Positions 1,249-48,159 of a stretch of 64,000 bases of DNA are shown here, one piece after another (the first letter of the stretch is position 1; each line of letters opens with the position of its first letter). Position numbers and translations under genes: made by a program. Source of the DNA: Psammoneis japonica (taxonomy: Eukaryota); contig QPGO01000016.1 in the NCBI GenBank assembly GCA_008632985.1, positions 220,840-284,839 of the forward strand, written 5' to 3'. The notes under the pieces were generated by a model that searched no databases, had not been told where the DNA came from, and worked only from the letters and a program-made list of their open reading frames with translations.

Positions 1249-1299
1249 AAAAAACTTTTCGATTATCCCCTTGTGCAGCCTTTTCCGTTCAATGCGAAT

Positions 1300-8429: not shown

Positions 8430-9650
8430 GTCGACCGGTTGGTCTCGCCCTGGGTTTGCACCCTTTGGCACTCAGGACAAATTGATGAGTCAAACGGAAT
8501 GAACAAGGAGTGCAAACAACCGCCAGTCATTCAAAAACAAAGAAAGCTTGAGTTCGCTCTTTCAGCCAAGTCTTGGGGGTCCATTGCACTTGTGCCACTT
8601 GCCTCCTGGTGCATTCCCAGATGAAAGGGACTGGTTGCTGGATGTTGGCAGCTGCAGAGTTTCAACTTCAACAGCTCGCTGAAAAAGCCCAGCCACCATG
8701 GGGTTGACCACAAACAAAATTTTGTTTGGGCCATCAGAGTGGCAAAAGTCGCAGCAGCTCAAAAAAGGCACTCACACTGGTGGTGAATGGCTTCACAATT
8801 GTCAAAACTGTCTTCTGGTCAAAAAGGCAAAAAAAAATGATTCTCAGCTGCCACGACAACAAACTGCGCTGCTTTGGCTCAGACAAGCAGAGAAGGAGCA
8901 ACTTCACAAAACTTCTGCTGAACTTTGTTGTTGATCACATTTCCAGCAGAAAGACATGCTGGCATGGGGCAAAAGAGGTCTTGGCTGGCACACACAGTGC
9001 TCAAGATGCTGTGGGACATTGCACGCAATTGCTTGCAAAGCCAACCCCACGTGCACAGAGCCCACATCAACACAGATGACGCACCCAGTCACAAAAGTTG
9101 CCAGCTCAAAACCAAGTTTGAGATGGTTTGCAGGATGGCCAGCAGCAAAAATTAGCTGCAAAAAAGCTTGCTCTCCCTTTTGGCATGAAACAAGCAAAAG
9201 GTGTTGTGTGGTGTGGTGCATTGAGGGAAGAAGGAGCTGGTGTGCCAACTGTGTGACAAGCAACTGGCCTGGCAACAAAGACACGCAGAGATGGTGCCAC
9301 TGTGAAGCTCCAGCAAAATTTGACAATTCTGCTCTTTGCAGACATGCAAAATGGAAGTGTGTGTGGCAGTGCATTTTGTCAGCTCCAGAAAACACCAGCA
9401 AATGACCCGAGCGGGGCTTTCTGTGCCGAGCGACAATGTCAACCCACACACCATCTTGCACCAGGACTGGTGTCACACCACCTTTGTGTCCCTGATTTGT
9501 GGTCCTTTGAGCCCATTGTGGAGTCGTCCGCATGCAACACACTCCATCACAGCATTCTGGCGGCCGCCTGCCCCCACAGCTCCATCATCTTCTAAATTTC
9601 GGACTCCTCTTTGTTGCTGTTGGAAAAAATCGAAAAACACGTTCAATGGA
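8430..9650. mobile_element. Decayed repeat/TE block 2
   Basis: Same CG/TA depletion and TG/CA excess, followed by an AT-rich stretch at 9660-9770. Confidence 0.6.
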
Positions 9651-13569: not shown

Positions 13570-15700
13570 TCACAGTAAAAAGCCTTTTGTTATGTGTGAT
13601 GTCGTGATCAATGAGGGTGGTGCAAGGGGATGAAGCTTGCAACTTGGCTTTTGATTGGCTGCCCCAAAGAGTTGCAGCACCAAATCTAGGTTGCCGGCTT
13701 GCTAACAACAAGACAGAGTGGCTCTTTCGTCAGTGACAGTCGTGTCATTGATGCCGGGTTCTTTCCACCGATGACAACATCTCCACAACTGGCATGTGGT
13801 GGGATGCTCAGTTTGAAGACATGGTTGATGAGCAAGCTGGTTGCAGTGTCATTCGTGCCTGACTTCATTTGAAAGGGCCGGAACATGCATGGAAATTGGA
13901 TTACAATCATTTCTGAGACAGTTGGTGTGGCTTTAAATGCTGTTTGCCTCATCTCCTTTCAACTTGATTTTCCATGCTGCGGATGTCAACACCTGCTTTT
14001 CTGTTGGGAGAAGTCATCAAGCAGCAAGGAAACACTTCATGATTTTAAGTGTCTGTGTGTCTGTTGTCACACTGTTAACAAAGGACTTGTCATCTCATTG
14101 AACACCCAGTTAAAACAGCCCCAGTTCTTCTGTTTCATGCACATTTCTTCTGGGAAGCACAATGTCATCACACCTGTCAGGTCTTCTCATGATTCGCTGA
14201 GTCCTCTTTTCTTGAAGGCTGCATTGAGCACCTTGCTCTCACAAAAGTTGCAGCCATCTTGATTGGCAGGTGGTCACAAACTGCCGCTGTTGCTGTGTGC
14301 TTGTGCAAATCAACATCAGGAATGAGCTCTCTCCCTTCTCTCTGTCTTGAATCTTCTTGAGAAGAACTGGGGAGCCTGCTGCCCAGCATGTGCTTCTTTT
14401 TGGGGAGAAGGCAACTTTGCACTGTTGGCACCATCTCATTTGCTCTGTTGGAAAAGTGTGCACATTTTGGTGTGCAAGGTCAAGTGTGTGGGAACTGACA
14501 TCCAAAATTTGCACCTGCATGCCCCCGTTGTTGGCTGCCCCCTTTTGGGCACATGCACACATGCTGAAAGTGTCCTCAATTGGCCTGTCTTTTTTTCTCT
14601 TTTGATCACTCTTCCAAAGAGCAGTGAAAAGACATGAGAAAGGTGAGGCAGTTGGCAGTTTGTTTGTTGCTGCTCATGCCTCTTTGCCACCTTCTGGCCC
14701 TGCTGCCCAGGAGTTCCTCTTGGTGGTTTTTTTCAGGTGAAGGCATCTTCAGCACTGACAGAGCCTTTCCACTCTGTTTTGGCATTTGAGGTTGAGTGCG
14801 CAGGAACTGCAATTAGAAGCAGGAGCTTGCAAGCACACAAGACTGCTTCTGATGTGTGCAACAGCCAAGAGTGACTGTGTGGGTGCTGGCGCACCCCAGA
14901 CAAGAGGCACATGTCCGGCCACGTGCAGGCAGCTCTGAGTTCATGAAAAAAGGAAGATGAAAAGGAGGAGGAGAGAGAGAGAGAGGGCAACAGTTCAAGC
15001 TTCCTTGTGATGGCCAGACAAATGTTGCACCTCAGGCCTGCCTGCCCCTGACACATCTCAAAAAACAACCATGGTGGCAGCAACAGCCACTGCTCAATTT
15101 TGTTGACAAAGCTTTTCTGCTCAGTCAGATGGCATCGGCCGTCCATCCAGTCTTGAGTGGTGGTTGTCACCCAGCCACCAGTGTCAACTGGTGTTGTCTG
15201 GCCAGTCTTGAGTGGCATGTCATCTCAAGGAGCAGTGGCAAATGTCCAGTCTCGACTGGCATCATCCAGCCAGTCTCAAGTGGCACGCCCTCTCAGCCAG
15301 CACACACATCTGGTCTCAGGTGGCATCGCCCAGCCAGTCTCAAGTGGCATCACCTGGAAAGTCTCCAGTGGTGTGGAGGCTGTGGCTCAGACAGATTGGC
15401 TGCTTCTTTTGATGTTGTCATGCTGAAAGTCAATGCCAACTTGTTTTTCCTCGAAACAGCTTGATGAGCCAAGGAAGCAGGGCGGGCTCTCTCTTTCTTG
15501 TCACCATGCTGTGCAATGTGTGTGCCAGATCATTTCCACTTGCTTGTCATCATAGAAATGGAATTGTGTCATCATGGGATTCTACACAAGTTCCAGCACA
15601 TGTCCCACACACTCATGGAGTGCCACCCACAGCTGGACGATTGCCGGACGAGCGAGAGAGGAAATGAACGAAGTGAATCTTGATTTTTGTCAATGATCCA
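13570..15700. mobile_element. Decayed repeat/TE block 3, including a short CCAGTCTCAAGTGGCA-type minisatellite (15140-15370)
   Basis: CG/TA depleted. CCAGTCT(C/T)(A/G)AGTGG-like motif recurs at ~15147, 15202, 15246, 15270, 15334 and 15361. Confidence 0.6.
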
Positions 15701-24986: not shown

Positions 24987-26269
24987 ATGCCATCTATGAT
25001 ATATTGGATGACTGCTCATCCTGCCGTGGCCACCACGAGTGTAATTGTCGTGTCGGCGGCTTTGCTGTTTTTGTTCCCGCATTCCAACCATAACCACGAA
25101 AAAACGGTTTCCATAGCATTCGTCGGTAACTCCATGATGTTTTTCAATGACTTGCTTCGACTAGTAGAAGGATTTGGAGGAATTTAGAAAAATTGTTGCT
25201 TGCGATCGGGCACGAGTTTATCGACAATTGTCAAGCGCGGCTCGGGCATGCGGAAACGATTCAGGACGCAAAATGCTTTGCTTAGTAATGACGGAACAAC
25301 AACGATTCATGACTATGGTGCTTGCACAGTTCATCAGTTGTTGTTTGGAAATTATAGCGAAACCAATGATTTTGTTGCCTACTATGATGGAGACGATGAC
25401 GACGTACGACGTCTATTCTTCTTCCAACTACGCGTACAAGGCAGGACGATCTAATCCATGCTATTCGGAACAGACGTATATGGAATACCTACAAGATTAC
25501 TACAAAGACAACGATCCGCATTGGGACAATGTCGTGATGAATGATCAAAGCCGGACTCCCGCTCTTTCCAGAATCCAGACGCAAGAGACTGCAAAGTTTG
25601 AATGACACGTACATTCCCTGGTTTCAACAAATGAAAACCACCATTCCAATCTTTATGGCCACACACGGGTATTGGTCGGACGACAAAGACATGACGGGCA
25701 TTCCTTACAAGAACATTCTTGCATTTACCGTCATGCTCCACGACGCATACTCGGAGTATGCCAATTTCATGGCTCAACATCTGCCAATCGCACAGCGACC
25801 GCGCTTGGCACCGGTGGGTCTTGTCTATTTAACCATTTGGGAAGAAAACATTGATTTGTGGTATCAAATGTTTGACACAGATCAGTTGCATTGCTCTCCT
25901 CTTGGAACATTTGCACAAGCGTGCACCATTTATGCCACGATCTTTGGGCGAATGCCGCCGCAGGCGACACGACAAAACATGACGGTTCTGTGGGATCGTG
26001 CGAGACGAATGCAGCCACCCAACAAACCTCCCAATCCGTTTCCGACTCTACAACAAGCAGAATATGTACAGTACGTGGTGGAGCGTGTCGTGCTGCGAGG
26101 GCATGTACCAGAGTTTTTGTCAGGTATAAAGAGGAAGGGTCAACAGAAAGCGATTGAAGCAAAGTGTGGCGTGATTCTAAACAAGTGCAAACAATCGCAA
26201 ACAAAGGTCTTTCTAAAGACGCAGCTATACCTCCTGTCAGTCTTATTGACACAATTTAACAAAGCATAA
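24987..26269 (+). CDS. Membrane-anchored SGNH-hydrolase-like protein (frameshifted)
   Basis: TM, then SIAFVGNSMMFFNDL (block I), VVMNDQSR, RLAPVGLVYL and DQLHCSPLGTF (DxxH-like block V). Frame breaks near 25190, 25410 and 25570. Confidence 0.6.
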
Positions 26270-26319
26270 TCCAATATCGTGACGGGATGGACCAACTAGT
26301 CGCTGGCGCGGAGCTAATC

Positions 26320-27868
26320 TCACCAGATCTTGATAACGAAGATCGTGAGGAAGACGGAACACACGGCAAGGTTGAAATCAAGCAAAACGGCTGCACTCGG
26401 TGCAAAGGTGGTACAATCCAGGCTTGGGTCCTGCTCACATCCACCCTTGGCTTGATCCACCGTCGCCGGCCCGCCCGCCTCGCATCCCTCGGCCTTTAAT
26501 AGGTCATAGGCAGCCTTGGCTTGGACAAGGCCGTGGCCGTACTTAATGTCATAGCCGGTGGCACCCAGATCCTCGGCGGTCTTGATCAGCACACCACGAA
26601 TCTGATGGTTGGTACAAGCGGGAAAGTGACTCCATACCTCTGCAGCAACCGCGGCAACGTGAGGACACGCCATGCTTGTGCCCGACAAAAAGGCGTACTT
26701 GTTTTGTAAGTATGTGGAGAGGATGTCTACTCCAGGGGCTGCAAGCTCGACTTGATTGTTTGTCTGGGAAAAGCTTGCGTGCTCCTTGTCTTCGTCAACG
26801 GCCGCAACCGAAATAACCGCTGGATACGATGCTGGATATGAGTGATCCGAGTTGCCAGCGTTCCCCGCTGCAGCCACCACCAAGAAGTCATTTTCATACA
26901 AAAAATCATACACCTGGTCTTCAAAATCCACATAAGTAGGGCCTCCCAAACTCATGCTAATAACTTTTGCACCCAAGTCGTAGCAACCCCTGACTGCGTC
27001 GAGAATGGATGATGAAAAGCCACTACCTGCGTCCGACAGGCCTTTTCCAATGTGCTGCATTAGTGAGAGAGAATAATACATATTGCAATGCGTTTCAGCT
27101 CTTAATTCATCAAGGCGCTGGAGAAAAAGATTCACATTCATGTGCACGTACGAAGGAAAACAAGTCCGGATTTCTTCTCACGCCCACCACGCCCATATCG
27201 TTACCACCAATGGCTCCAATGACACCCGCTGCAGACCATACGTAAGAGAAATTGACTTGAGAAACAATCTCTCAAGAGAATTCAAGTTAAGATTTGTCAC
27301 GACGTACCACAGTGGGTCCCATGTCCGTTGCCATCGTCTTCCCACGTGCCAGCAACCACTGAAAGTTCTTGAAAACCATTGGTGCCGGTGACATTGTTCG
27401 ATTCGGAGCTTGGCAAGTCCGAATGACCGTCTTGAATGCCTGTATCCACAACACAAACGTTCACCGTACCGGGTGCATCCGCAGCAATATCAAAGAGCTG
27501 GTCTGCTTGAACGAGCCTAATGCCGTATTCAACACTTTCTTCAAACGACGACGAGTTTCGTTGTAGACCTTATCCACGGGTGGTTTCGGCCCCAAGCCAA
27601 TGAATGGGTCAACTACAGCGCCTTCAATATCGTCCGATTCATTCAACTGATCTAGAATGGTATTCTTTTCGGCATCGGGTACTTTAATTAGAGCCAAGCG
27701 AAACCTCTCAATCTGGAGGTCAATCTTGTTGTCAATGTCAAAACTCTCCAACAGCGCCACACCTTGATCGTTGACGTACCGGGCAAGAAGATTGGCTTCT
27801 TCTGCTACAACGCCCTGAAGGATTATCGTTAGAACCGCCAAGACAGGCGGGAACCGAAACGGCATCAT
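26320..27868 (-). CDS. Subtilisin-like S8 serine protease, copy 1 (introns; 1-nt deletion near 27541)
   Basis: Signal peptide. Catalytic triad motifs VCVVDTG, GHGTHCG and SGTSMACPHVA, plus VAAAGN. Hydrophobic C-tail (GPI-like). Confidence 0.88.
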
Positions 27869-28139
27869 GGTGGTATTTTCGCACGATCGATGAAAAAAAG
27901 TGAGGTGGTGCGGTGAAGTGGGAGCGGTGGCTTCATATTTCCTTTATTAAAGGGATGTAGAGCTCGCATACTTTGTTATGTGTTGGTATGTGAGCCACTG
28001 CTTCTTACGAGCTTCAACCAAAGCTATCTTTTGAGTCACACAGGACCAAATCCGCACCATAACCCGGAGGGCACTAGCCATGTGGCTCGTCATTGCCCTG
28101 GGGCCTGGGGGGCCCAGCAGTGGTTCTGCTCTGTAGCTA

Positions 28140-29690
28140 GAACAGCAGAGACAGCAGTTCTCTCTGCCAGAGTGCAGAGAGCATGCAGCAGCTGCTGATG
28201 TTTGCCTGTGCTTCATTGTTTGACAAGGAGGAATGAGTTGTTTGTTTTGGCAGAAACCAGCTGCTGACTGCTGACAGTGTGTGCATCGCTCTGTTTGGCT
28301 GCTGCTGCTCCTGCTGTGGCGTGTGACGACAGAGCCAAGCTTGTGGCTGCAGGGTTGTCTCTGGACAAATGGTGGACAGTGCACACTTCACATGTGGTCA
28401 TGCTGCAGTGCATTGCCAGCCACCGCATTTGTGCAAGAGCCAACAGGTTGGGAGTTTTTTTTTTTTTGCACAGAGTTTCAAAATGCTTTGGCAGGGCATC
28501 ACTTTTTGGTTGATTGGTGTGCCCTTTTTTTTTTAGTGCCAAGAAGATCACCGCCAATTGCATGCATTGTGCAAACTCAGCACACAAAATTGACAGATGA
28601 GTTGACTCATGCCTTGGTTTGCAGCATGTTGAGCCATGTGGGAGCACGCATGAGCGGTGCTTGCCACCACAGCTGTGTCATTTTTTGCATTGAAACTTTT
28701 GTGCGGGTCATTTTCATTTTGTGTGAAACACTTGGCACTCTGCACAATGATGTTTGCACTGCATCCATTGCCCCAAATGTGCATCTTTAAGCTTTAAAGA
28801 GTGGCGCACACTGGACATGTCACAAACACATGAAACTTTTTGTGCGGAGTTTCCCAGGGGTGCAAACTTTTGCAAGGGATTTCCTGGCACTGCTGCACAA
28901 TGAGCTTTCATGCTGCTGGTGTTCCTGGGGACTGAAAATGACATCAATGGTGCATGTCAAAAACAACAAAGCTTCTTGCACTTGCATGCTGCCTCAGCCA
29001 GGGCTTTTGACACAGCAGGGCATCATGGGAAGGCCACTTTTTTCCATTGATTGCACTGCGCAGAATGCGCATGACATCAAGTGTGTGCACCCAATGCCCA
29101 AGCACTCATTCACTCATGTGCCGAACATGCATTTGTGGGGCCCCACAGTGAGGGTGCTGTCTTTTTCTCTGAAAATGCCCCGCCATGTCCAAAGGCCCAG
29201 CCCCAGCACCACTTCCCACAAGGACCTCCATGATGCACTCTGGGGTGCAATTTGTCAGCTCTCATGCCTGAATGGCAAAAGTGCTTCACTGGCAAAAGGT
29301 CAAACATTTGCCAGTTGGAGTTGCAAAAATTCCCATTGTCAACAACAAACCATGCACACCATCCTTGCCGATTGTGCAGCCTGGCACTTTTTGTTGACAC
29401 AATCTTGTCAAGCAGCATGGTGTGACACACCTTGTGATGTTTTGGATGCTTTGCTGATGCAGGCAGTTGCTGCAGCATTGCTGGTTGCTGTTTGCACCAG
29501 AGATGACAATTGGGGACTTTCATTTTTCACAGAATTTTTGTGGGCTTCCACAGAGCATCACTTTTGGGTTGATTTGGCGGACACTTTCCAGCTCGCTCTG
29601 GGTGGGACCTCGTGCTGCTGGACTGTGACATTGACGATTTCTTGTCATGCGCCACAAGTCTCGAAGGTGCATTTCTACATGACTTTGGTG
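28140..29690. mobile_element. Decayed repeat/TE block 4 at the duplication junction
   Basis: CG/TA depleted. The first ~190 bp are converted host sequence homologous to 31860-32040; the rest is unrelated insertion up to ~29820. Confidence 0.65.
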
Positions 29691-29821
29691 GTGTTTTATG
29701 TCATTTTGCAGTGCAATTATTGGGCGATCCATTCAACAATTTTTCACATTTTCACACAGAAAGCCATTCCCAAATGTCTGCAGAATGGTGCAGTGCAGGC
29801 TGATTTTAATAAAAAAATTCC

Positions 29822-29930
29822 CATTCCGACTCCACAACAAGCAGAAATTGTACAGTACGTGGTGGAGCATAATGTGGTTCTGCGAGGTCATGCACCAGAG
29901 TCTTTTGCTAAGAGCAAAGAGGAAGGGTGA
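29822..29930 (+). pseudogene. 3' fragment of the duplicated SGNH-like gene
   Basis: PTPQQAEIVQYVVEHNVVLRGHAPE matches PTLQQAEYVQYVVERVVLRGHVPE at 26040-26115. Confidence 0.85.
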
Positions 29931-30109
29931 CAGCGAGTGATTGAAGCGAAGTGTGGCGTGATTCTAAACAAGTGCAAGCAGTCGCGAGCAAATCTCTACT
30001 TGTTTTTCAAGTTGCAGCTATCTCCTGTCAGTCTTATCGGCACAATTTAACATAGCATAATCCAAGATCGTGACAGAATGGACCAATTCACTTGGCGGTG
30101 AGCTTAATC

Positions 30110-31606
30110 TCACCAGATCTTGAAAACGGCAATGGTGAGGAAGGCCGACCACACGGCAATGCTGAAATCTAGCAACACTGCTGCGCTCGGAGCATCCGTC
30201 GCCGACCCGCCCGCCTCGCAGCCCTCGGCTTTTAATAGGTCATAGGCTGCCTTTGCTTGAACAAGGCCGTGGCCGTACTTGATGTCGTAGCCGGGTTTAC
30301 CTAGATCCTCGGCGGTCTTGGTCAGCACACCACGAATCTGATGGTTGGTGCAACTGGGAAAGTGACTCCACACCTCTGCAGCAACCGCGGCAACGTGAGG
30401 ACACGCCATACTTGTGCCCGATAAATAGGCGTAGCTGTCTTGTAAGTGTGTGGAGAGGACGTCCACGCCAGGGGCTGCAAGCTCGACTTGATCGTTTGTC
30501 TGGGAAAAGCTTGCGTGCTCCTTGTCTTCATCAACCGCCGCAACCGAAATAACCGCTGGATACGATGCTGGATATGAGTGATCCGAGTTGCCATCATTCC
30601 CCGCCGCAGCCACCACCAAGAAGCCTTCTTCGTACAAAAATTCATACACCTGACTTTCAAACGGAATATAAGTAGAGCCTCCCAAACTCATGCTAATAAC
30701 TTTTGCACCAAATTCGTAGCATGCCGAGACTGACTCGAGAATGGATGATGCAAAGCCACTGCCTTCATCCGACAGGCCTTTTCCAATGTGCTACATTAGT
30801 GAGAGCGAATAATACATATTGCAATGCGTATGAGCACGTAGTTCATCAAGGTGCTGGAGAAATAGATTCACATTTTTGTGCACGTACGAAGGAAAACAAG
30901 TCCGGATTTCTTCTCACGCCTACCACACCCATATCGTTACCACCAATGGCTCCAATGACGCCCGCTGCAGGCCACACGTCCGAGAATTTGACTTGAGAGA
31001 CGATCTCCCAGGAGAATTCAAGTGTAAGATTTGTCACGACGTACCACAGTGGGTCCCATGTCCGTTGCCATCGTCATCCCACGTGCCAGCAATCACCGAG
31101 AGTTGTTGAAAACCATTGGTGCCGGTGACATTATTCGATGCGGAGTTTGGCAAGTCCGAATGGCCGTCTTGAATGCCTGTATCCACAACACAAACATTCA
31201 CCGTACCGGGTGCATCCGCAGCAATGTCAAAGAGCTGGTCTGCTTGAACGAGTCTAATGCCGTATTCAACACTTTCTTCCAAACGACGACGAGTTTCGTT
31301 GTAGACTTTATCCACGGGTGGCTGGGGTCCCAACTCAATGACTGGGTCGACTACTGCGCCTTCAATATCGTCCGATGCATTCAACTGATCCAGAATGGAA
31401 TCCGTATCGGCCTCGGGTACTGTGATGAGAACCAAGCGAAACACCTCAATCTGAAGGTCAATCTTGTTGTCAATGTCAAAACTCTCCAACAGCGCTACAC
31501 CTTGATCGTTGACGTAGCGGGCAAGCAGTTTGGCTTCTTGTGCTTCAACGACCTGAAGGATTAACGATAGAACCGCCAAGACAGGCGGGAACCGAAACAG
31601 CATCAT
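30110..31606 (-). CDS. Subtilisin-like S8 serine protease, copy 2
   Basis: Same motifs and intron positions as copy 1. Reads RRLEESVEYGI in frame. Lacks copy 1's VDQAKGGCEQDPSLDCTTF segment. Confidence 0.9.
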
Positions 31607-32212
31607 GGTGGTTACGGTTTTCGCACGATCGATGAATCAACAGTAATCATGAAAAAAGTGAGGTCAGCGAGGTCGGTGGAGTTTTTTCATTTTTAAAGGT
31701 CAGTATAGCTCGCAACACTTTGTTCCGTTGTAGTACAGTATGTGTGGTACTGTAATCTTTTTACGAGCTTCAACTAAAGGTATCTTTTGATACACAGGAG
31801 AGATCAAACCCCGGAGGTCACTCGTCATCTTGATGTGCTCCGTTGCCCGTTGCACTCTCTCTACTAGTAGAGTAGAGTAGTATGGCCCTACATACTCTAG
31901 CTAAGTGGCTAGTAATTCTCTCTCAAGAGTGTAGAGAGTATGCTCCTATGCTGTACATTTGATGAGAAGGAATGAGTTGTTGTTGGTTGGGCAGCCACCA
32001 GCTAATAGTGTTTTGATTTGTGGCATGTGGCGTGATGCATGCTTGTAGTTAGTCCAGGTGTCTAATTGACCGCGCTATCATGAGATCGTTTATGCTGGGC
32101 GACTGCCTGATCCAGAGCTACAGAAGCAAGTACCGTTCCGAATTCATGGCGTCATCTGCAAAAGTGCATCAACTCCAATGTGCTCAACACCCTGCCACAA
32201 AGTGAAACTCAA

Positions 32213-33352
32213 CTATTCTTTCAATGGCTTCAATCCCAGCTTGGCTCGTTCTGCGTTCCAATATTCCTTGGATCCTTCTATCGGTGGCGCATCGCCGGAT
32301 GAATCTTGCGGTTGTGGAGGCGAATCTTCTTCGTTTTGTTCTCCTGGTTCCTTTGCCTGCTTTTCTCTCCCCTTTTCTCCCTTGGAAAAGAGAGTACCAT
32401 ACTTTGATGATTCCTTCTTTTGCTTCTTCTTTTTCTTGCGGGAAGACTCGCCATTGTCCACATTGTAACCTCTGTCATCCTTTCTCTTGCCACGACGGAC
32501 CGTTTCGTCTTGTCCATCACGAGAATCCCTATGAGGCCGGTGGTCCTCCTTGCGGCCACGACGTCGGTCGGAACGATCCCTGTCTCTTGTATCGTTACCG
32601 TGAGTTCCTCGTTGGTCGTGATTGTCTCGCTGCCGCTCGTCTGAGCTTTCCGCTCGTTCTTTGTTTGTTTGCTCGTCATATTTTTTCTTCTCCGCTTGCT
32701 GACGTTTTTCGTACAATTCCTTTGCAGCAACACTTCCCTGTTCCACCTTTTTCACTAGATATCCTTCTGGTCCACCGTATTGTTCCAGCATTGGTTTGAG
32801 TGCCGTCGGACGTGTTTCTTCTTCCAAATATCCCGCCTCCACCAGAGTTTCCCGCAGTGCCAATCTCGGCAGCGCAATCCCACAAACCTGTTCCTCGGTC
32901 AGAAGCGCATGTACAAACTCATCCATGGTGATCAGATCCCATTCCGTGACATTTCTCATTCGTAACTTTCGATAATCGCGATAGAGCGGTTCTAGCAATT
33001 CGTAAATGTCCGCTGGTCGTCCCGTCAGACGCTTGTAAAAAATCCCCAAGGCCCGAACATACTTGAAATCTTCGTTGGATATGAACTCCTCCACCAAATC
33101 ATCCGACGGTTGTATTTGTAATAATTTGAGAATTAAACAAAGAAATTTGGTGGGCTGCATGTTTCCTCCGTACGATCCACCAATCGTTTTCAACGCTGTG
33201 GCTTTTTCCAAAACTTGCACCGCCGTCAAACCAAAACATTCTTCTTTCCAATAACGCGAGTCGTAAATTTTCTGTCGGGTAATGTATTCCATTAAATTTT
33301 GTGGGTCCGTTCCATGGAGGGCCGCCACGAGAGGGTCTGTTACGTTTGCCAT
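32213..33352 (-). CDS. PRP38: Pre-mRNA splicing factor 38A
   Basis: MANVTDP, HGTDPQNLMEYITRQKIYDSRYWKEECFGL, FKYVRALG, DYRKLR, charged tail and YWNAERAKLGLKPLK. Confidence 0.96.
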   Translation of the reverse strand: MANVTDPLVAALHGTDPQNLMEYITRQKIYDSRYWKEECFGLTAVQVLEKATALKTIGGSYGGNMQPTKFLCLILKLLQIQPSDDLVEEFISNEDFKYVRALGIFYKRLTGRPADIYELLEPLYRDYRKLRMRNVTEWDLITMDEFVHALLTEEQVCGIALPRLALRETLVEAGYLEEETRPTALKPMLEQYGGPEGYLVKKVEQGSVAAKELYEKRQQAEKKKYDEQTNKERAESSDERQRDNHDQRGTHGNDTRDRDRSDRRRGRKEDHRPHRDSRDGQDETVRRGKRKDDRGYNVDNGESSRKKKKKQKKESSKYGTLFSKGEKGREKQAKEPGEQNEEDSPPQPQDSSGDAPPIEGSKEYWNAERAKLGLKPLKE

Positions 33353-33600
33353 GATCTGCTTTTAAAGTCTTTGTTGCGTGTTTTTAGAAGTATGAGAGGC
33401 TAATACAAAGTAGACTCTAGAGTACGACAGCGCTGAAAAGGAAATCGAGGGTCAATGTCGTCAATCGATCAGAGGAGCGGGGTGCGAGAGGGGCGACAGG
33501 TTCCCTTCATCCCGACGGAGGGACAGACCCTCCAGGCTACTTGAAGTGAGCGACGTCATCTTTATCAACCAATTATTATTCTATTCGTCTCTACTTCAAC

Positions 33601-35100
33601 ATGAGCCTAAGTGCATGCGGCCATACAACATACCAATGCCGTGCCGATGATAGATGCGAATGCGTTGGAACTTTCGACCTTCGGTTGCTTGTTTTCAGTT
33701 TTGCTGTACCGGAACACAGATTGGATAGCTCCCAACAACGACCTCATCAAGATGATGACAGTAGCATCACAGCATGGTTGGATTGGCTTGTTTGCCCTTG
33801 TGACTGTGCTGCGTTGCGTTTTATATGAATTGCACACCACTCAACGACTGGCTTCTCATTTCCAGCAAATCGACAGCATGCACGCTCTTCTTGTCAAAGC
33901 TATAAAGGCAGAGAGACCTTATCCACGCGTGACAGCCTTTGAAAGCAAGTCTATCAATAAAACAATGTCGTCGTCAAGACACAGTCGGTCCGTCGATGCC
34001 ATGTCGATCAACAGAGCGTTTGAAGATAGCGAATCGATTCCAGGCTCTTCAACGATTCCGTACTACGAAGAAGGATGTCGTTTCGACATTCATGGCATAA
34101 CCAAACGAATCCCATGTGCAACAATATCCATGAGATGGATTTGTATACCGGCTTTCGAAAAGAAAATGCAACCTATTTGGGCAAAGGAGCACGAAGAGTT
34201 GCGTGGCGAGTATTCGATGCCACGAAACACGTCATGGCGGTCAAGACACAAGTCTATGAAATACAAAGTGGATCTCGCTTGTATGTAACGCAGACAGAAG
34301 CACAAGTAGCGGCGAGAATGACTTCATCGAAACACAGTATACAATTTTACGGACATTGCGGAACCACCGGGCTACATGAATTTGCTTCTGGAAAATTTCC
34401 AAAAACATTCGAGAGTGGTCTCGACAAGTTGCGCATGGCATACGAGGTAACCGACGCGGTTGCGGATCTTCATGGAATTGAAAAGACGGCATACCATCCA
34501 TAGTCTATGGGCATTTGCAAACAAACAATGTAATGATTGTCAATGGGACTTGTAAGTTTTCGGACTATGAGCAAGCCAACTTTCTCATGTGGAACGATCA
34601 ACAAAGCGAACATGTGGTTTTTACCGAACACCAACGGGTAGTGTGAGTTTCTTTTTGTTTGTCAAGGTCAATAGTCGCCACGGCGAATGTGAGGCTAACC
34701 CTTCTCTTTCCCCTCTTTCCAGAAAAATCGTGCTCCCGAAGAGGGTGATCTCTACTACACGACAGACTACCCGCATCGAATGATAACAGAAGCCAGTGAC
34801 GTCTATCGAGTTGGGCTTATTCTTTATAAACTGCTGACGACTGAGTCAGCTCGAACCATACTGGAAGAGTGTGACATGAAGGAGACGACCTTCGAAAGAA
34901 ATCCAAGAGCATGCCATTGTCGGCGACACGCTGGTCAAGGCATTCTTAATGACGAATTCTTGTACCCCATCCGCTCGTGAAACCGCAGCCAATATTGCCA
35001 TGGTGTTGAAGAAGGGATTGATCAAGCCACAAGCAAATGAAGGACAGTTGTCCCCTCGCAGCAGCGGCCATTTTACACTCGCCGCCCACGAACTAAAAAG
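33601..35100 (+). CDS. PKDCC/VLK-like membrane-anchored protein kinase-fold protein, likely pseudokinase (frameshifted, one intron)
   Basis: TM, CNNIHEMDL, YLGKGARRVAW, VMAVKT, QFYGHCGT, SIVYGHLQTNNV, KFSDYEQANF, RAPEE (after intron ~34643-34722) and SDVYRVG. Ends uncertain. Confidence 0.6.
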
Positions 35101-35414
35101 AGAAAGATTGTTTCTACTCGGACAGTGGGGTTCAGAAATGCGGTACCTATCATTGGTGATCGTAACATTGCGCGAAACATGTTCAACGCCATTCTCCGAA
35201 ACCAAGAACGAAACCGCCACCACAATTCCCGGAAGCAGCAAGGGACAATATGAAAATGCGATTCGTGTCGCTGGATCATTCGCGTTCGAATTCGCGAGTG
35301 CCGGTACGACTTGACTATTGATCGCATGAAAATCGTCCGGGCAACCATTTCAACGATTTCACCTCTTCTTTTCTACCATCCTTCACTTGCTTAATCTCGA
35401 ATCCTCATCCACTG

Positions 35415-35972
35415 ATGCCGTTATCCCTCCAGCTACAAGAAGCTTCAAAACCAAGATTTCTTGCTTTTTGTCTCTCTTTTACAATCTTCGCCACCGTCGG
35501 TTCTTTTGTGGCCCTGATGTCGCTGATCGCAAACCACATTTTTGGGTGCTTGGAATACTGTGCAGGCGCTGAATTTGGCAATAACGGAAATGCAATTACC
35601 CTCGCCGCACTTACATCCTATTTGGGCACAGTTCTTTCTTGTTTTTGTGGGTGCGCCTTCTTGGGGGGGCGGCACATGGTTGCAGTTACACGCAAAGGAA
35701 CCGTTGCTCTCATTGTCATATACATCACGCTGGCGACGTTTCAATGCCTTAGCCTTGTCTTGTTTGCAGTGAAGGAAGCAGTGATCCCGAAGCAGGAAGT
35801 GTCCAAGCTAAATTCGTTGTTTGGCAACAATCATGTGACTCATCCCTGCAGCGTTGGTTCTTCTAGCGCAAATGTGCACCAAAACCAATGCAGCACCAGC
35901 ATAGAAGAAGATGAGAACACACTTTCTTGTCAGACTAAGGAGAGCTTGGAAATAGATTCCGCAGTCCTTTAA
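35415..35972 (+). CDS. Hypothetical 4-TM protein, copy 1 (frameshifted near 35785-35830)
   Basis: High identity to 37453..38013; four hydrophobic segments. Confidence 0.65.
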   Translation: MPLSLQLQEASKPRFLAFCLSFTIFATVGSFVALMSLIANHIFGCLEYCAGAEFGNNGNAITLAALTSYLGTVLSCFCGCAFLGGRHMVAVTRKGTVALIVIYITLATFQCLSLVLFAVKEAVIPKQEVSKLNSLFGNNHVTHPCSVGSSSANVHQNQCSTSIEEDENTLSCQTKESLEIDSAVL

Positions 35973-35978
35973 AATAGT

Positions 35979-37150
35979 TTTGTTTACGTTCTGGTTGTTA
36001 ATGTCATCTGGAGCTTCCTTCTTCCCAGGAATTGTGAGCGCTGAGACCTTTCTCCCGTTTCCTGGGTCCACATCTGAGTCCATGTTTGTTTGCAGGCGTG
36101 GCCAGAAAAATGTCATTTGGGTGAGTTGTTTGGTTGTTTGTCTTCAAGTCCACTTGTTTGAACACAAGATTGGGAATTTGTCATTCACTCTGTGCAGCAG
36201 TGGGGTGGCGTGTCACCTGCAATCCAGAAGCTGTGCCAGTCTGAGAATTTCCACATGTTGTTGACCCAGGTGTGAGCAGCTGGGTGATGGCAGCCCTTGT
36301 GCAGCTTTGTTCAAAAAGCTGTCACACTCTGTTGAGAGCACTGGGAGACCACCTTCTCAGTGTGAGACAACATTTTTTGTGACAAATGGTGACTCATGAG
36401 TGCCCAGCTTTGTTTGGTGAGTTGCTGGCCCACAAACTGCATCTCTGGTCATGCTTCACAGATCCCTGCACTTGGCATCATTGCTTGGCCAGCCATGGGG
36501 AGCTGTGCAAGAACAAGCAGCACACCGTGACTGGAACATTTGAGCACCACACAGCAATGTTGTCATGTCCAACAGCTGCCAGCTCAGCACCCACACTTCA
36601 CCATTTCCAAATGTTTGTCAATGGTGTGCCAGGATCACTTGACACCTTTTCATTGTTGCACTTGCTCCACAGTCCACAGACTGTGAGCTGTGGCATCTCC
36701 ACGTGGTGGCTGGAGGGGGCTGTGTCTGCAGTCAGAGCCCCCCCCCAACACACACACACACACAAGGGCTTGACTGTGTGCACAACAAACTGTCCAGGAG
36801 ACTGTGGGCTCCAGAAACTGCTTCACATCATTCTCCAAAGCCAGGAACAAAATTGCAGCCATGCCAAGGCATTGCCGAGCAAGAGTTTGAGACCAAAGCA
36901 AGTGCAGAAGGTGCGTTGTCAAGCAGTGCAGAGCAAAGTCATTGAAATGAGAACTTGCTTGGATGATCAATCTGCTTCCTCATCTCATGTGATGGTGTTC
37001 CCCTCATGCCACGAACGAAAAAGACGCCTGTCATTTTGTGCCTCTTGTGTTTCGCAAGTCTGCTGCACCGCTTCTCTCTCTCGCTGTTTTGCTCTTCCAA
37101 ATCCATGTTGTTTGACAACATCAAGGCAAATGACACAACTCAAATGCTTG
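35979..37150. mobile_element. Decayed repeat/TE block 5, inserted just after the stop of 4-TM copy 1
   Basis: Homology to copy 2 breaks after TTTAAAATAG (35978) and resumes around 37020-37120 (compare 38050-38127). CG/TA depleted. Confidence 0.65.
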
Positions 37151-37452
37151 TTCTCGATCAATCCATGAGCAAATGAAGGACAGGTGTGCGAAACAAGTTT
37201 CTACATGTGGTTCAGAAAATGTTGAAACGGCAGCAGCAAGCCAGGACGAACGAAACCGCCACCACAATTTCGGAAGAGGGGCAATACGAAAACGCGATTC
37301 GTGTCGTTGTGCGATCATTCCACGTTCGAATTCCGCGACTGATTGATATTCTCTATCTTGATCGATTGAAAACGGGGCAAGTTCTCATTTTTTCAACGAT
37401 CGATCGCTTCTTGCTACTTCTTCATTTGCTTATCTCAAATCCTAATCCAGTG

Positions 37453-38013
37453 ATGCCTTGCTTCCGGCAACAAGAAGATCCAACACCAACAAAATTTCTT
37501 GCATTTTGTCTCTGTTTCACAATTTTTGCAACCGTGGGTTCTTTTGTGGCCCTGGTATCGCTTCTCGGCAACCACCTTTTTGGCTGCTGGGAATACTGTG
37601 TAGGCGCTGACGATAGCATTAATGGCATTGCAATTACCCTCGCGGCACTTACATTCTTTTTTGGCACAGTCCTCTCTTGTGTTTGTGGTTGTGCCTTCTT
37701 GGGGGCTCCTCGTATGGACGGAGTAACACGCGAAGGAACCGTTGCTCTCATTGTCATATACATCGCGCTGGCGACGTTTCAATGCCTTAGCCTTGTCTTG
37801 TTTGCAGTGAAGGAAGACAGTGATATCGAGACAGGAAGTGTCCAAGCAAAATTCGTTGTCTTGGCAACAATCATGTGGCTCATCCCTGCAGCGTTGGTTC
37901 TTCTAGCGCAAATATGCACCAAAACCAATGCAGCTACAAGCATAGAAGAGGATGAGAACACACTCTCTTGTCACACCGAGGAGAACCTGGAAATAGATTC
38001 CGCAGTACTTTAA
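37453..38013 (+). CDS. Hypothetical 4-TM protein, copy 2 (intact)
   Basis: MPCFRQQEDPTPTKFLAFCL... with four TM helices. The duplication unit includes ~35030-35400, which resembles 37165-37450. Confidence 0.72.
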   Translation: MPCFRQQEDPTPTKFLAFCLCFTIFATVGSFVALVSLLGNHLFGCWEYCVGADDSINGIAITLAALTFFFGTVLSCVCGCAFLGAPRMDGVTREGTVALIVIYIALATFQCLSLVLFAVKEDSDIETGSVQAKFVVLATIMWLIPAALVLLAQICTKTNAATSIEEDENTLSCHTEENLEIDSAVL

Positions 38014-38374
38014 AATAGCTGAAACGACGTTTTGACTGTCGATTTGGCTGATGTCGGACACAAGAACCTCCTGTCGTTGCATCTCTGTCTTTCTGCAAGT
38101 CCTTCAAAACCCATGTTGTTTGACAACGAATGGAACGAATCATCAGCATCAAAACTATTTACCTGTACCAGTACCCGTACCCGTAAGCTATTAGTAACGG
38201 ATCTAGGTTTCAATCTTATTTTCATAGGGCCTAGAGAAGCAAAACGATCCCTAGTTCTTTTTTTTTTAATTATCACTAGATGGTGCGTTTGTGATAGCAT
38301 TGATAATGTGTCAAATGCAACAGCCAGGAAGAGTCCATACACAAAGTCACAAAGAAACGTATAGCTTTCGAATC

Positions 38375-41247: not shown

Positions 41248-41349
41248 ACACAATAAATGCGTGTCTACATGTGTGAATACAAACGTACATACGCTAAGCA
41301 CCCGGATATTTCGTAGAAGACCACATGCTGACGCCGTGCAGACTTCGCC

Positions 41350-44300
41350 TCACTCCTTTCTTTCGTCAATGTTGACAATTGAGGAAGAATCGGGGTGTGG
41401 CAGTCTCTCTTGTCCCCAGTGGAAGGACACTGCATGGCAATTCCTCCTCAAAGTTTTGATGATTTGAGTGATGATGTTTCTTGCATTTCGATGACCCACC
41501 CACACATTTGCCTGTTGTCATTGTGTGCTGCCCCGACAGAGTGTGAATGTGTGCCCAAGACCTCACCAGCAGAGGTGCATGTCACCATCAACTCCTTTGT
41601 TGCCATGAGTGGTCAACAGCAATGGTTGTTCTGGTGGTTGGGAATGAACAACAAAGTTTTTCAAGTGCTTGAGATGCAGGTGGAAGCTGCTGGGGAGGCT
41701 GGAGATTTTTGTGACTGGCGGGGCGCTCATCCGACCAAACCAACACAAAAGAAGCTCTTCAAGTGATGTTGCAACCATCAGCATTCCATCACCAATGCAA
41801 CACCTGCCCAAGCCAGTCATCAGGGGGCACTCAAGCTGGTCGACCATCTGGGAAAACAGTGTGACAGCTGCTGCAGGGAGAGGCTCCTCAAACGTTTGGG
41901 GTTTGAGCCACGAAATGCACTCTCTGGATTTTGTTGCACCTGCAATTCAGCAGGAAAACCAATTGTTGGTGCACCGGACATGGAGCACATGGTCCCACAC
42001 TAGATGGACTCATGGCGATTGCCTCTGGCTTCGCTCATTCCCTTTTCTGGACATGCGTCACATGGCAGCTTGTGTCTGTTTGGGAGTCTGACAGGTCATG
42101 TCGCCCTTTCAATGCCTCCTCTGCATTGTTTGGGACACATGGCATCAATGCGTTACATTCGAGCACCTCAACTTGTCTTGTGGAAGAGCCCATTGGCCAC
42201 CAACCACTTCGACCATTTTTCAACGACTTTGTTTTTTTTTCTACGTGGGAGCCAGTGTTGTTTCCACGCAGCATCCAACCACGGCTGCGAATCGACTTGT
42301 GGCACTGCACCCTTTGATCCATCAAGGCTTTGCTGCTTTTTTTGCAGTGATTCATTGACAAGCATCCATTCTGTTGACATTGGCTGTTCTTTGCTCCGTT
42401 GCCGGTGGTTGTTGACACTCGCAAGCCTCACGAAGACTTGCCAGCCTTCATCCTCCGAATCGGATGTCTTCTGTGTGACCTCCAGCGCAAGTTCTGCGTG
42501 TTGATGCTGTTTTGTTCCAGCGAACTGTGATGCTCTGCACCAGTGATGACCTCTCCGGGACAGCTGATGATGATCCTGCCTCTCAGCCTTCCTCTCTCCA
42601 TCTTGTGCAATGTGCCAGCAGCTGTGGATGTGGTTCATGCCGGCCAATGCTCTCTGCAGACAAGCAGTCGGGAGCTCTTTTCTGTCACCCCGTGGCGCTG
42701 GCAGATTCTTTCCAACTGGCTCTGGAGCTGACAAAACCAGAGAATTTTGAGCTGCCTGATTGTGTCAATGCTTGGAACAGTCTCTGTCTGTGCACTTTCC
42801 TGTTTGCGAAGTTTTCAAGTCAGGATCCCAGGACGGTTCTAGAGGAGCTCTTGCCCCCTTGCTCTTTTGAGTCACTTCCTCACCTTCACTCACATGTTGA
42901 CCGGTGGTGGCATTTTCTGCTTGAACAGCTTGCCTCTCCCACTTCTGATCCCTTTGTCATCGATGTGGACATTGACAAAGCAGCTTCCAAGGTGGTGCAT
43001 GAGTCCATTTTGCCTGTGCAGCCCCCTGAGCAATGCCCTGATGCGGGTTGCCCGTGCAGCCCTGCTGCATCTTGTCGATCTGGTTCTCTCCCACTGAGAT
43101 CAATCAGGGCCTTTGCTTTCCCTTTGCATCCTTTTGATTGGGTTGACGGTTGTGTTTGCGATGCTCCTGCTTCTGGGAATGATGCTGACGTGTCTCTTTG
43201 TTTTGGAACAGACGCCACGTTGGATCCTTCCAAACTCCCCGACGACGACCCATTTTCCCCTGGATTGAAGTCTTTGCAGCCGCACCCCATCACACACACT
43301 GCACCGCCACTGCATTCCTTTGGTTGGATTGATGGACTTGGCTTTGAAGGTTCTTCCATTGCCCCGGCTGGCTTTTCTCTCAGGTTTGGTGCTGCCGCGA
43401 CTTTGGATCCATCCAAGCTTCCCGACGATGACCCAAACGAGGATGCCCCGCACCCCATCACATGGATGACCAACCTCTTCTTGGATGTCTTGACCCTTTC
43501 TGATGATGACCCAAGCCATCTTTCCTTGCTGTTTTGTTTTTCTGCTCCCTGGTTTGATGACCCAACATTGGATTTGTCGAAGCTGTCCGATGATGACCCT
43601 TGCTCTTCTTCTTCCAACTGGGGGAGGGTTTCTTACACTGCATTGCCTTGCAGCTGATTGTCCGGTGGACTGCGGCACAGCATTTGTGGGTGTGTTTTTC
43701 TGATGACAGCATCATTTGCTCCATTTGTGCGGCTCTTTTTTTTTTTGTGATCAAACCAATGCTTTGATCAGTGGAGGGTGTTGGCGCACCGGACATGGAG
43801 CACATGGTCCCACACTGGACAGACTCATGGTGATTGCCTCTGGCTTCACTCGTTCCCTTTTCTGGACATGCATCACATCGTAGCTTGTGTCTGTTTGGGA
43901 GTCTAACGCCAATGCCTCACCAAAGCATTTGAACCTGTTGCCAGAGCCAGCAGGACACTTTGAAGCACCATGATTTCTTGGCTGGGAGCTGCCTCAATGG
44001 CTGCATTGCCCCAGCACTTGTTGCATGTTTTGACATCTTCAGATTGGGTCCAGGCTCAATGGAGAGTAAAATGCAACCTGGTGGATGGCCAATTCTGCAA
44101 TTGATGCTTGGACATTTTGGTGAAAATCTGCCAAGTGTGAAAATGCCATGCTTTGGAGCTCATTTGGCCTTGACGATGATGGATGTCTCTGCCTGAGTGT
44201 GCACCTCATTTCCAGCCACCACGCAAACATCCAAGTGTGACCCACTTCTGCAAGATGACAGCACCCCTTTGATTGGCTTCTTTCCACAAAAAGACCTGAA

Positions 44301-45400
44301 AGCATCAAAGACACAAAGTCGAGCCCCAAAACGACAGAGCCTCTCAGAGCAACAACCATTGTGATGTGGTGCTGCCAGCCCTCGAATGACTCGCGGTTCT
44401 GATGTGCCAAAAAATGAGCAAAAGATGCTCTTTTTGGCCAGTGGAACTGCTCTGATTCTTTTTGTTTATGAAACAAGAGGCCAGAAAGCTTCACCCTGAC
44501 AATGACAAAGTCAAAAACAAAGAGTTTTGTGAGCAAAACAAAAGAAAATGTTGCAAAGCTTGCCCTCAAGTGCTCACCTCACAACACATGTTCTGGCATC
44601 TGACTCATGATTGGAAGCATCAAAAGGCACACTCTCACCCTAATTTGATGTTGCTTCTCTTCAGAACAATTTTGAAAAATCACTTGGCCCCAATCCACTG
44701 AAGTGCAAAAGTTCAAGCAACTGGAACTCCCACCCAGATTGGCCTCGACTTGTGGTGAGGGGGATGTTGCATGGGTCCTCCAGGTTTGCAAGCCAGAAAA
44801 GGAAAGAAAATGTGGCAGTTTCACAATGTCTCGTCAAGAAAAAACTCACGTTTGCCACCAGAATCAACGCGCTTTCATCATGGCCATGCCCACAAAAAAC
44901 TCCTTCGGCTCATTGCGCAAAATTTTGGAGAGTGATGAGACATCATGAGATGAGGTGATTTACACAGCGTTGTGGTGCAAAATGTGTGTGTGACATCAAC
45001 ATGCCAGGCCTGCGGCTGTGGTGCACCTCTTTCATGGGGTGCCTTTCAACATGTGTGGCGCAATTGCTGTCGGCCTTTTTGTTCCTGGGATGAAATCCAG
45101 TGACAGCTCTGCAGCTGTGGCTTTGGCAAACTCAGTGCTCCAAAGTTTGGGTGGACTGGATCACTCAACAGGCCACTCTTGCTTGCAAAAACTCAGGGGG
45201 GGGCTTCGTCCAGTGTTTCTGAAGACTCCTCTCAAGACCTCCATTGGCCGAGTTTCAACTTGTGTCACCAAACTTTGACGCGGCGCCTCCCACAGTTGTT
45301 GTTTGCCTCTTCTTTCAATTTTCAATGCATTGTCGTTTTCGATTTTCAATGCAACCGAATGCAACAATGATTGTGATGTTTCAGTTTTTGTGTTCACTCG
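41350..45400. mobile_element. Decayed repeat/TE block 6 with internal direct repeats
   Basis: CG/TA depleted. 128-bp direct repeat at 41964-42091 / 43779-43906. Four TTGGATCC..CCGACGATGACCC-type units at 43220-43600. Confidence 0.7.
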
Positions 45401-46037
45401 TCACTCGGGGATGGCATCCGTGACATCACGCGCACGCGACGGCGCGCGCCGCCTGGACTACGTTGACCAGTTCGGAGGACCAGGACGGCCGGCATCAATG
45501 GTGGGGAACGTCAAGACTGTCAATTCGGATCCCTTTCATTTTTGCATTTCAACTTCCCACAACATTTTAGCTTTACTTACTGTCAATCGATCATGTTGAT
45601 GCTTTAGAGCCATTTGAACGCTCTAATTCCACAGAACGCCAAGAAATCCAAAGCCAAACGCGCCTAAAAGGCTTGCTTGGGATCCAGCACGGACCGGATC
45701 GTGGCATTGGAAAATCGTTGTTTGTTCTCTGGGGCTGTGAGCATTGATCATCCCACCATGGTGTGCAGATGATCAGGCATTTAAGGCCGGTAAAGATTCC
45801 CACAGACAATTTAAAAGAAAAGATAGACACTACCGTACAACTGAACCTCATAACACCAGTAGTAGTCTATTTCAGTTGAACAACACAGGCAATACAGGTA
45901 TCTGCTAAACTATTACTATGGCTGCTACACACCCATCATCCTTGGGTGGATACGCTTACCAATCTTCTTTCGTGAGGCTTCATGAATGTGGCACAGAAAG
46001 AATGTAGTAGGATTCATGAATCATTCATGAGTCATGT

Positions 46038-47357: not shown

Positions 47358-48159
47358 TATTTGCAGCCGTAGCTACTGGTGGCCATTTTACTTCTTCTTT
47401 TGGAGTGCAATGAGGGGTCACAAAGTCACAAAGAGGGCGGTGAAAGCATTACTTTTGGATTTTGTTTGACGTGAACCTACTATGTACAGTTCTATGTTCT
47501 ATTTTATTTTACAATGGTTGAAGACGTCAATGACTTATGACTGTGACCGCCATCAACGACTGAAACGATTGAACAACCAACGCGAACCCAATCAAAAATT
47601 TCGAGGTTCAAATCAAGAATGGAGCTCACTTTATTCTCGTTCTTACACTGACAAGAACTTCTTGTTCCTGTTAAGTCTTTGGCTCCAGCTCATCCATGTC
47701 ACCTTTGGCACATGTTCCTGTCACTTCTTGTTTCTTCACAATGATTGGCCTCCTTGTTGCTTGGCCTGTTCCAGCGAATGAATGCAGACACAGCATCGTG
47801 GCTGGTGTCACAATGCTCTTGCCCTTGTCTTTACGATGCACTCATTTCTGTGTAGCAGCTCCCACAAGTTTGCAAGCCAATCAGGCTTTCTTGTCCTGTG
47901 CTCCCCACACGTTCCATGCACTGACCAAGACAGACCACTCCGCCAGGATTTGCTCGATCCCCGCGAACCGACACAGCCACATCGACACAACTGTGTCTGT
48001 TCATCCACTCGAAACATCCTCTCATAGAGAGCCAAAACACAAACCCAATTTGCTGCCAGCCAATCTGGCTTGGGAGGTCACAAGGTGTGAGTGCGAGTTG
48101 CAAGCCCTGGACCTTGGCTGCAAAGGACCATCATCGCCGAAAGACAAATGAACATGGCT

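Follow-up and report, generated by a model that had tools for sequence, protein, structure and literature searches.

How does a piece of host DNA lose its TA dinucleotides (TpA) when a second copy of the same piece keeps them? This question is raised by a tandem pair of subtilase genes in a 64-kb stretch of DNA, called the window hereafter, in which about 1.5 kb of non-homologous DNA (28341-29814) lies between the two duplicated units, and the DNA upstream of the first gene, next to this block, is free of TA. The block is called an insertion solely in the sense that it is non-homologous DNA of this length between two units. We regard it as probable that the loss of TA results from a local, context-specific hypermutation of TpA to CpA or TpG that is aimed by position and spills about 200 bp into host DNA. 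The locus is composed of the following elements.

26035-27900, minus strand: subtilase copy 1, with the start codon at 27868-27866, introns at 27055-27151 and 27229-27307, and ordinary TA and CG contents.
27901-28065: proximal upstream DNA of copy 1, diverged from copy 2, with TA and CG kept.
28066-28141: transition zone, with a gapped alignment to copy 2 and part of the TAs and CGs lost.
28142-28340: TA-free host-derived DNA, homologous to about 31905-32066 upstream of copy 2.
28341-29594: core of the inserted block, single copy, without homology to copy 2 or to the DNA on either side, nearly TA-free and CG-poor.
29595-29752, plus strand: 158-bp repeat, present about 100 times in the genome and only partly depleted here.
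29815-31606, minus strand: subtilase copy 2, with the start codon at 31606-31604, ordinary TA and CG contents, and a contig of sequencing run X2 (described below) at 30044-30401.
31607-32099: upstream DNA of copy 2, the unmutated reference, lying from 31942 onwards under the PRP38 transcript contig.
32216-33361, minus strand: PRP38 (PF03371, E 1.5e-60), the right-hand neighbour of copy 2.

The open reading frames (ORFs) at 26323-27177 in copy 1 and 30113-30790 in copy 2 match Peptidase_S8 with E values of 3.8e-36 and 2.4e-37, respectively. The homology between the two units begins at about 26035 in copy 1 and at about 29815 in copy 2, and self-BLAST aligns 26040-28045 with 29824-31799 at 84.5% over 2042 bp. 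A global alignment extends the homology to about 28340 in copy 1 and to 32066-32099 in copy 2, where the right limit is uncertain by about 30 bp, and this alignment is colinear and unbroken from the gene to about 28340. The local alignment of 28153-28262 with 31911-32003 has a score of 71 (z = 13), and dinucleotide-preserving shuffles reach 23.1 ± 3.6 with a top score of 40, none of the 300 shuffles attaining 71. The initial annotation had proposed that the two upstream regions are homologous, and for 28142-28340 and about 31905-32066 the homology is significant. The strings quoted there are present as well, namely AGAGTGCAGAGAGCATGC at 28171-28188 and AGAGTGTAGAGAGTATGC at 31928-31945, and CAGCAGTTCTC at 28152 and TAGTAATTCTC at 31910.

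Three sequencing runs of one sample, probably the same sample from which the window was assembled, were available, and contigs of two of them are considered here. Run X1 consists of DNA contigs. Run X2, although labelled 'DNA?', was treated as transcript-derived because one of its contigs, which stops at 27900, joins across the two introns of copy 1, whose CT..AC ends on the plus strand read as GT..AG on the minus strand. Run X2 gives no cover over 28124-29543, which cannot serve as a sign that the block is silent, and its word depth, about 1500-1965 over copy 1 and 121-507 over the covered part of copy 2, cannot rank the genes. Record 14 of run X2 spans 31942-33440 over PRP38, and the homologous stretch at the copy-2 locus extends out of the subtilase promoter into the last part of the PRP38 3' untranslated region (3'UTR). 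In copy 1, 28142-28203 is distal upstream DNA and about 28203-28340 is the duplicated end of the PRP38 3'UTR, which is presumably useless there. The affected DNA had been described as host promoter DNA, a description that fits its distal upstream part and fails for the most distal stretch, which matches the 3'UTR end.

Comparison of the two copies reveals a sharp change in the fate of TA along the alignment. In the gene region (26040-27870), copy 1 keeps 47 of the 63 TAs of copy 2 and has CA or TG in place of 10, and 13 changes are found in the reverse sense. Between 28066 and 28340, only 2 of the 18 TAs of copy 2 are kept in copy 1; 11, located within 28118-28306, read CA or TG and 5 have other letters, with no change in the reverse sense. 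Past 28142, none of 12 is kept and 9 read CA or TG, again with none in the reverse sense. Retention differs between the gene region and 28066-28340 (Fisher's exact test, p = 1.6e-6), and so does direction (11:0 against 10:13, p = 0.0018). The stretch 28142-28340 has no TA where 10.6 are expected, whereas its homolog in copy 2 (31905-32066) has 11 where 12.1 are expected, and 31640-32070 has 34 observed against 34.1 expected. Parsimony, together with this internal evidence, leads us to infer that copy 1 is the changed copy in 28142-28340.

The loss ends well before the gene. In the transition zone, the TAs at 28075, 28134 and 28138 and the CGs at 28065 and 28088 survive, and a distance of about 240 bp separates the last kept TAs (28134 and 28138) from position 27900, where the copy-1 transcript contig ends. 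The loss had been said to start at 28131; this start has to be moved slightly, as TAs survive just beyond it and the DNA is fully TA-free from 28142. The proximal upstream DNA of copy 1, itself about 30% diverged from copy 2, has 11 TAs against 14.6 expected and 8 CGs against 9.8 expected, and 5 of the 9 aligned TAs of copy 2 are kept in it. The RNA-supported introns of copy 1 contain TA at 6 observed against 8.9 expected and 4 against 7.2, and CG at 3 against 3.7 and 3 against 2.8, and their homologs in copy 2 are similar. Consistently, two further claims of the initial annotation stand: the host sequence lost its TAs only beside the inserted block, as the contrast of 2/18 with 47/63 indicates, and the duplicated genes are untouched, their changes being symmetric (10 and 13) and their observed/expected ratios of TA and CG ordinary in both copies.

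The inserted block is real and present in single copy, as judged by DNA contig depth. The X1 contig covering 27831-29978 is identical to the window with a depth of 63.7, and DNA contig depth in the block is 64-83, compared with 58-73 in its flanks. The core contains only three TAs, at 28534, 28788 and 28795. The ORF at 28791-29927 has neither a Pfam match nor a homolog, and a search for terminal inverted repeats, long terminal repeats and a target-site duplication at 28340/29815 gave nothing convincing. The block had been called a transposable element, a name that we have abandoned, because no block ORF reaches the Pfam cut-off and only the 158-bp piece is repetitive. An internal partial repeat is found within the block, 28448-28527 resembling 29510-29587. 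Whether the block might be a third copy of the flanking DNA, altered by hypermutation, was considered separately, and this origin is unsupported: alignment of 28340-29824 to the flanks with ordinary scoring gives nothing significant, and nothing rises above shuffles with free or cheap transition scoring, a scoring that drifts positive (block core against left and right flanks, both duplications). In the 3' part of subtilase copy 1 (26275-26384), the DNA run contains two haplotypes with depths of 33.8 and 23.5 of 57.3, suggesting that the source is diploid and heterozygous. No second haplotype was found in 27831-29978, that is, no contig without the block or with variant letters there.

The right end of the block behaves differently from its core. 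Bin depth rises from about 64 to 5996 in the 158-bp repeat, and there are loose ends at 29595 and at 29752. A second, inverted copy occupies about 56393-56545 at the margin of the largest block (aligned to the reverse complement of 56330-56545), and no further copies were found in the window besides those at 29.6 kb and 56.4 kb. Both window copies border a depleted block. In the well-aligned part, 13 CGs of the copy at 56 kb can be followed to the copy at 29.6 kb, where 4 are kept, 6 have turned into CA or TG and 3 have become other dinucleotides, with one change in the reverse sense, indicating that the depletion fades inside the repeat. Where the window copy has TG or CA, the family consensus, which was read from the loose ends, is rich in CG.

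The block between the subtilases (28066-29650 by sliding count) is one of 11 stretches nearly without TA, which together make up 19,327 of the 64,000 bp (about 30%) and occupy every long intergenic space of the window.

1518-4754, 8437-9525, 13770-15638, 28066-29650, 35988-37025, 41347-45284 (three pieces) and 48026-56226: TA/CG-poor blocks by sliding count.

The observed/expected ratio in the blocks is 0.04 for TA and 0.19 for CG, compared with 0.57 and 0.97 outside, and CA and TG are raised to 1.84 and 1.74, compared with 1.21 and 1.16 outside. Per 500 bp, TA depletion is uniform and CG depletion varies from 0.03 to 0.77. Since 47706-48771 and 45000-45500 contain no TA and yet are only mildly CG-poor (0.43-0.77), the loss of TA and the loss of CG are uncoupled. 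No block ORF reached the Pfam cut-off in a search of 157 ORFs of at least 110 amino acids across the window and of 136 of the 159 shorter block ORFs, the other 23, inside a 187-bp tandem array, being omitted. Two matches in block ORFs fall below the cut-off, Glyco_transf_90 at 1544-1900 on the minus strand (E 2.8e-4) and VWC2L_2nd at 50603-50974 on the minus strand (E 1.4e-4); the former lies at the left margin of a block and may represent a mutated gene fragment. The ORF at 42479-43654 on the plus strand, with 392 codons, no TA and repeated ...DDDP... motifs, looks like a hypermutated coding relic. It has one distant relative, P0122 (33% over 91 amino acids, library E 1.6e-5, pairwise E 6e-12), itself an orphan without a Pfam family, and Tyr in P0122 corresponds to Cys or Phe in the ORF.

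Four lines of evidence, namely a tandem array, the repeat consensus, the flanking bases and a precedent, point to changes of TA to CA or TG and of CG to CA or TG in place. The array is a feature of the largest block.

49752-52802: 187-bp tandem array of 16 units with 78% matches, inside the largest block.

At 12 sites of the array, CA is found in some units and TG in others, whereas control two-step swaps number 0-3, and CG survives in some unit at 6 of these 12 sites. One site reads TA in 5 units, TG in 5 and CA in 4, and another reads CA in 10, TA in 3 and TG in 1. The array may thus be read as a built-in record of independent decay following amplification.

The flanking bases follow a simple rule. 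Fifty TAs remain in 19.1 kb of blocks, among which TTAA (19) and CTAA (13) predominate, and the RTAY classes (R, purine; Y, pyrimidine) are at 0-2% of their density outside. A model of independent decay on each strand, with the rate set by the base 5' of T, gives a chi-square of 2.0 on 6 degrees of freedom with decay rates of 2.97 for A, 2.49 for G, 1.22 for C and 0.31 for T. The rule for the CG residue is flatter (T 1.08, A 0.90, C 0.68, G 0.30; chi-square 2.6), with a mild preference for A or T before C. In agreement with the rule for TA, all five GTA sites in the paralog comparison have become GCA. The RTA/TAY rule with TTAA spared is compatible with an adenine deaminase of the TadA/ADAT type, and the TadA substrate is UAC. 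The enzyme may be a DNA adenine deaminase of this type acting on TA followed by a pyrimidine.

The precedent is a preprint on the chlorarachniophyte Bigelowiella natans (Mettrop et al., bioRxiv 10.64898/2026.01.13.699255). According to its available text, TpA changes to CpA or TpG in mutation accumulation lines, only at TpA and about 1000-fold over baseline, and the target is single-copy, silent, integrated viral DNA. The same text reports 124 TpA-poor and CpA- and TpG-rich clusters in the genome, clusters of this kind without annotation being the long-term footprint, and proposes an ADAT2-like deaminase (10.64898/2026.01.13.699255). As far as that text goes, the change of TpA to CpA or TpG, a single-copy target and confinement to regions are common to both systems; here, 11 of the 16 changed copy-2 TAs in 28066-28340 read CA or TG. 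The systems differ, on the same basis, in several respects. The organism is a chlorarachniophyte there and a diatom-like alga here, judged from relatives of its N-myristoyltransferase (NMT); Rho is 0.45 for the nucleocytoplasmic large DNA virus region there, compared with an observed/expected ratio of 0.04 in the blocks here; and the target is viral there, whereas no viral or transposon protein is recognisable here. CpG loss accompanies TpA loss in the window, whereas 'CpG' does not occur in the available preprint text, and its main text, in which 'flanking', 'boundar' and 'trinucleotide' are absent, does not treat spill into host DNA or flanking-base context. Finally, the mutations there are de novo, whereas here a footprint is read from the sequence alone. 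New here are the nearly total loss of TA, the CpG decay with separate limits and the flanking-base rule (RTA/TAY, with TTAA spared).

Two other known processes account for part of the pattern. The CpG decay of methylated transposons resembles the change of CG to TG or CA in block cores and the presence of CG in a few units at the CA/TG sites of the array, but it cannot account for the loss of TA, and the CG zone and the TA zone have different limits. Editing by ADAR or APOBEC enzymes resembles the present pattern in its clustered A-to-G or C-to-T changes, its neighbour preferences and its aim at selfish nucleic acids. In contrast to such editing, which on RNA would need reverse transcription, unique host DNA is changed in place here, and the changed DNA is a colinear duplicate of host upstream DNA rather than a retro-copied element. 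In addition, the need for a T on the 5' side is near absolute here and the 3' preference is pyrimidine >> G > A, whereas ADAR prefers a 3' G. A literature search found nothing on the joint loss of TA and CG in diatom repeats.

A first alternative to local hypermutation is relaxed constraint under a genome-wide decay of TpA and CpG, in which selection would keep genes, introns and promoters and the useless host copy would simply have drifted. The block limits match functional units: about 240 bp lie between the TA-free zone and the end of the copy-1 transcript contig, and the limit at 35999/36005 of another block falls at the end of an ORF. The affected host piece has no evident function. A genome-wide neutral bias able to erase RTA would, however, not leave introns and about 30%-diverged proximal upstream DNA near the TA and CG contents expected, and this favours a local process, although selection or transcription-linked protection may also explain the introns that keep TA. 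The RTA decay in the blocks, about 2.5-3 per strand, is far beyond the general divergence of the copies. In the available text of the Bigelowiella natans preprint (10.64898/2026.01.13.699255), the signature is restricted to certain regions, about 1000-fold above baseline. Taken together, relaxed constraint as the sole cause seems unlikely to us. Regional confinement was assessed within the one 64-kb window.

A second alternative, repeat-triggered mutation of an insertion belonging to a repeat family, would resemble repeat-induced point mutation (RIP) of ascomycete fungi and would leak a few hundred base pairs into unique flanking DNA. RIP is likewise a dinucleotide-specific transition hypermutation of non-genic DNA that can reach neighbouring unique sequence, one end of the insertion is formed by a repeat of about 100 copies, and the internal partial repeat is present. 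Since RIP also leaks into unique flanking DNA, the spill alone would not exclude it. The trigger by homology pairing does not fit for three reasons. The block core is single copy, and the high-copy 158-bp piece, whose family read consensus is CG-rich, is the least mutated part. The 2-kb tandem duplicates, once identical, are spared, 47 of 63 TAs being kept with symmetric changes, where RIP would have mutated both. RIP converts CpA to TpA and raises TpA, whereas TpA is destroyed here and CpA and TpG are raised. We therefore consider a repeat trigger quite improbable. The view of the initial annotation that the process does not depend on homology pairing but on position, with a reach of about 200 bp, is supported for the subtilase locus; the chromatin domain that it invoked stays conjectural.

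In a last alternative, which is very unlikely, CA and TG would be the ancestral state and the TAs of copy 2 a later gain, or else 28142-28340 would be a host fragment captured in a mobile insertion. This alternative draws on the lack of an outgroup, the runs of TAG in the copy-2 upstream DNA and the uncertain right homology limit. Against it speak the TA content, which is at expectation in copy 2 and zero in copy 1, the direct passage of the TA-free stretch into 1.3 kb of further TA-free DNA, an alignment that holds from the gene to about 28340 without a break, and the native setting of the segment at the copy-2 locus, under the PRP38 transcript contig.

It is shown here that the two upstream regions are homologous, that TA was lost in one direction, that the block is single copy, that the duplicates are untouched and that the loss follows a context rule; local hypermutation aimed by position would account for this as follows. 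Long non-genic blocks would be hypermutated locally from TpA to CpA or TpG, and CpG in block cores would in addition decay to TpG or CpA, possibly as a result of cytosine methylation. The insertion between the tandem subtilases would bear the TpA signature of a process aimed at a place and not at a sequence, so that the mutated zone would be shifted and graded with respect to the insertion. On the left side, the zone would take in about 200 bp of duplicated host DNA without a function of its own, or as much as 275 bp if the transition zone is counted, and its limit would lie about 240 bp upstream of where the copy-1 transcript contig ends; on the right side, the zone would fade within the 158-bp repeat. 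Silent chromatin may do the aiming, as may read-through or guide RNA.

The edges of the other blocks bear on the graded nature of this zone. The TA-free zone outreaches the CG-poor zone at 12 of 14 block edges, with a median of 168 bp and a range from -245 to +1065, as measured by simple density thresholds that are arbitrary. At the edge at 28.1-28.4 kb, CG recovers at 28357, which is about the junction, and TA at 28147. This pattern fits a TA process that extends beyond the CG process, and it also fits a shared graded profile in which a faster TA process becomes visible first at the margins. On both readings, the limits are graded and positional and are not set by sequence.

Several observations weigh against hypermutation that is aimed by position and spills into host DNA. 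One of them comes from a second tandem duplication.

35020-35999 and 37156-38040: second tandem duplication, 82% over about 790 bp, with a block (36005 to about 37050) inside unit 1.

At the left edge of this block, TAs are kept up to 35999, with no spill, and both copies retain an ATAG that lies 30 bp away from the block; this edge (35999/36005) adjoins the end of an ORF. The right edge is uninformative, as the paralog has no TA there. A weak match of 37053-37119 to 38059-38127 was also seen. The subtilase locus thus offers the single block edge with a host paralog and informative TAs. There, CG is rare in both copies of the 28142-28340 segment (3 and 1), so that spill is demonstrated for TA only. 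The affected host piece is probably functionless, and loss of constraint therefore contributes in a way that is inseparable from targeting. An outgroup was sought by a metagenome scan with the subtilase catalytic exon, which returned one locus, L001, with 39% identity, not an ortholog. A transposon or viral origin of the insertion found no backing in the Pfam search of the block ORFs at the cut-off. For the context model, the starting composition of the blocks was taken to equal that of the mostly coding DNA in the remainder of the window.

The single-exon ORFs of the window include those for NMT, PRP38, a chlorophyll a/b-binding protein, PAP-fibrillin, a mitochondrial carrier and others. Judged from this content, the window appears to come from a gene-dense photosynthetic eukaryote. 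The relatives of the NMT are 62-71% identical, and among the 120 listed, all those with a full organism name are diatoms, namely Seminavis, Fistulifera, Nitzschia, Mayamaea, Cylindrotheca and Pseudo-nitzschia, suggesting that the source is a diatom-like alga.

So far, TpA hypermutation of DNA is known from the Bigelowiella natans preprint alone, in one chlorarachniophyte and with no established mechanism. The subtilase locus suggests that such hypermutation also exists in a diatom-like alga, a second lineage. It provides a natural control, in that a host sequence is present twice and is mutated only by the insertion, which speaks for aiming by position rather than by the sequence itself, its copy number or its foreign nature. 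A search for the enzyme, and the question of whether it follows cytosine methylation, can both draw on the flanking-base rule and on the different limits that the loss of TA and the loss of CG have. It is possible, and we put this forward tentatively, that diatoms share with chlorarachniophytes a TpA-specific DNA editing defence that would be old and widespread in the stramenopile, alveolate and rhizarian (SAR) lineages, would be aimed by position and regularly overshoot by about one nucleosome, and would use a TadA/ADAT-like deaminase without dependence on cytosine methylation. If this is true, such a defence would erode host DNA too, including regulatory DNA beside silenced insertions.

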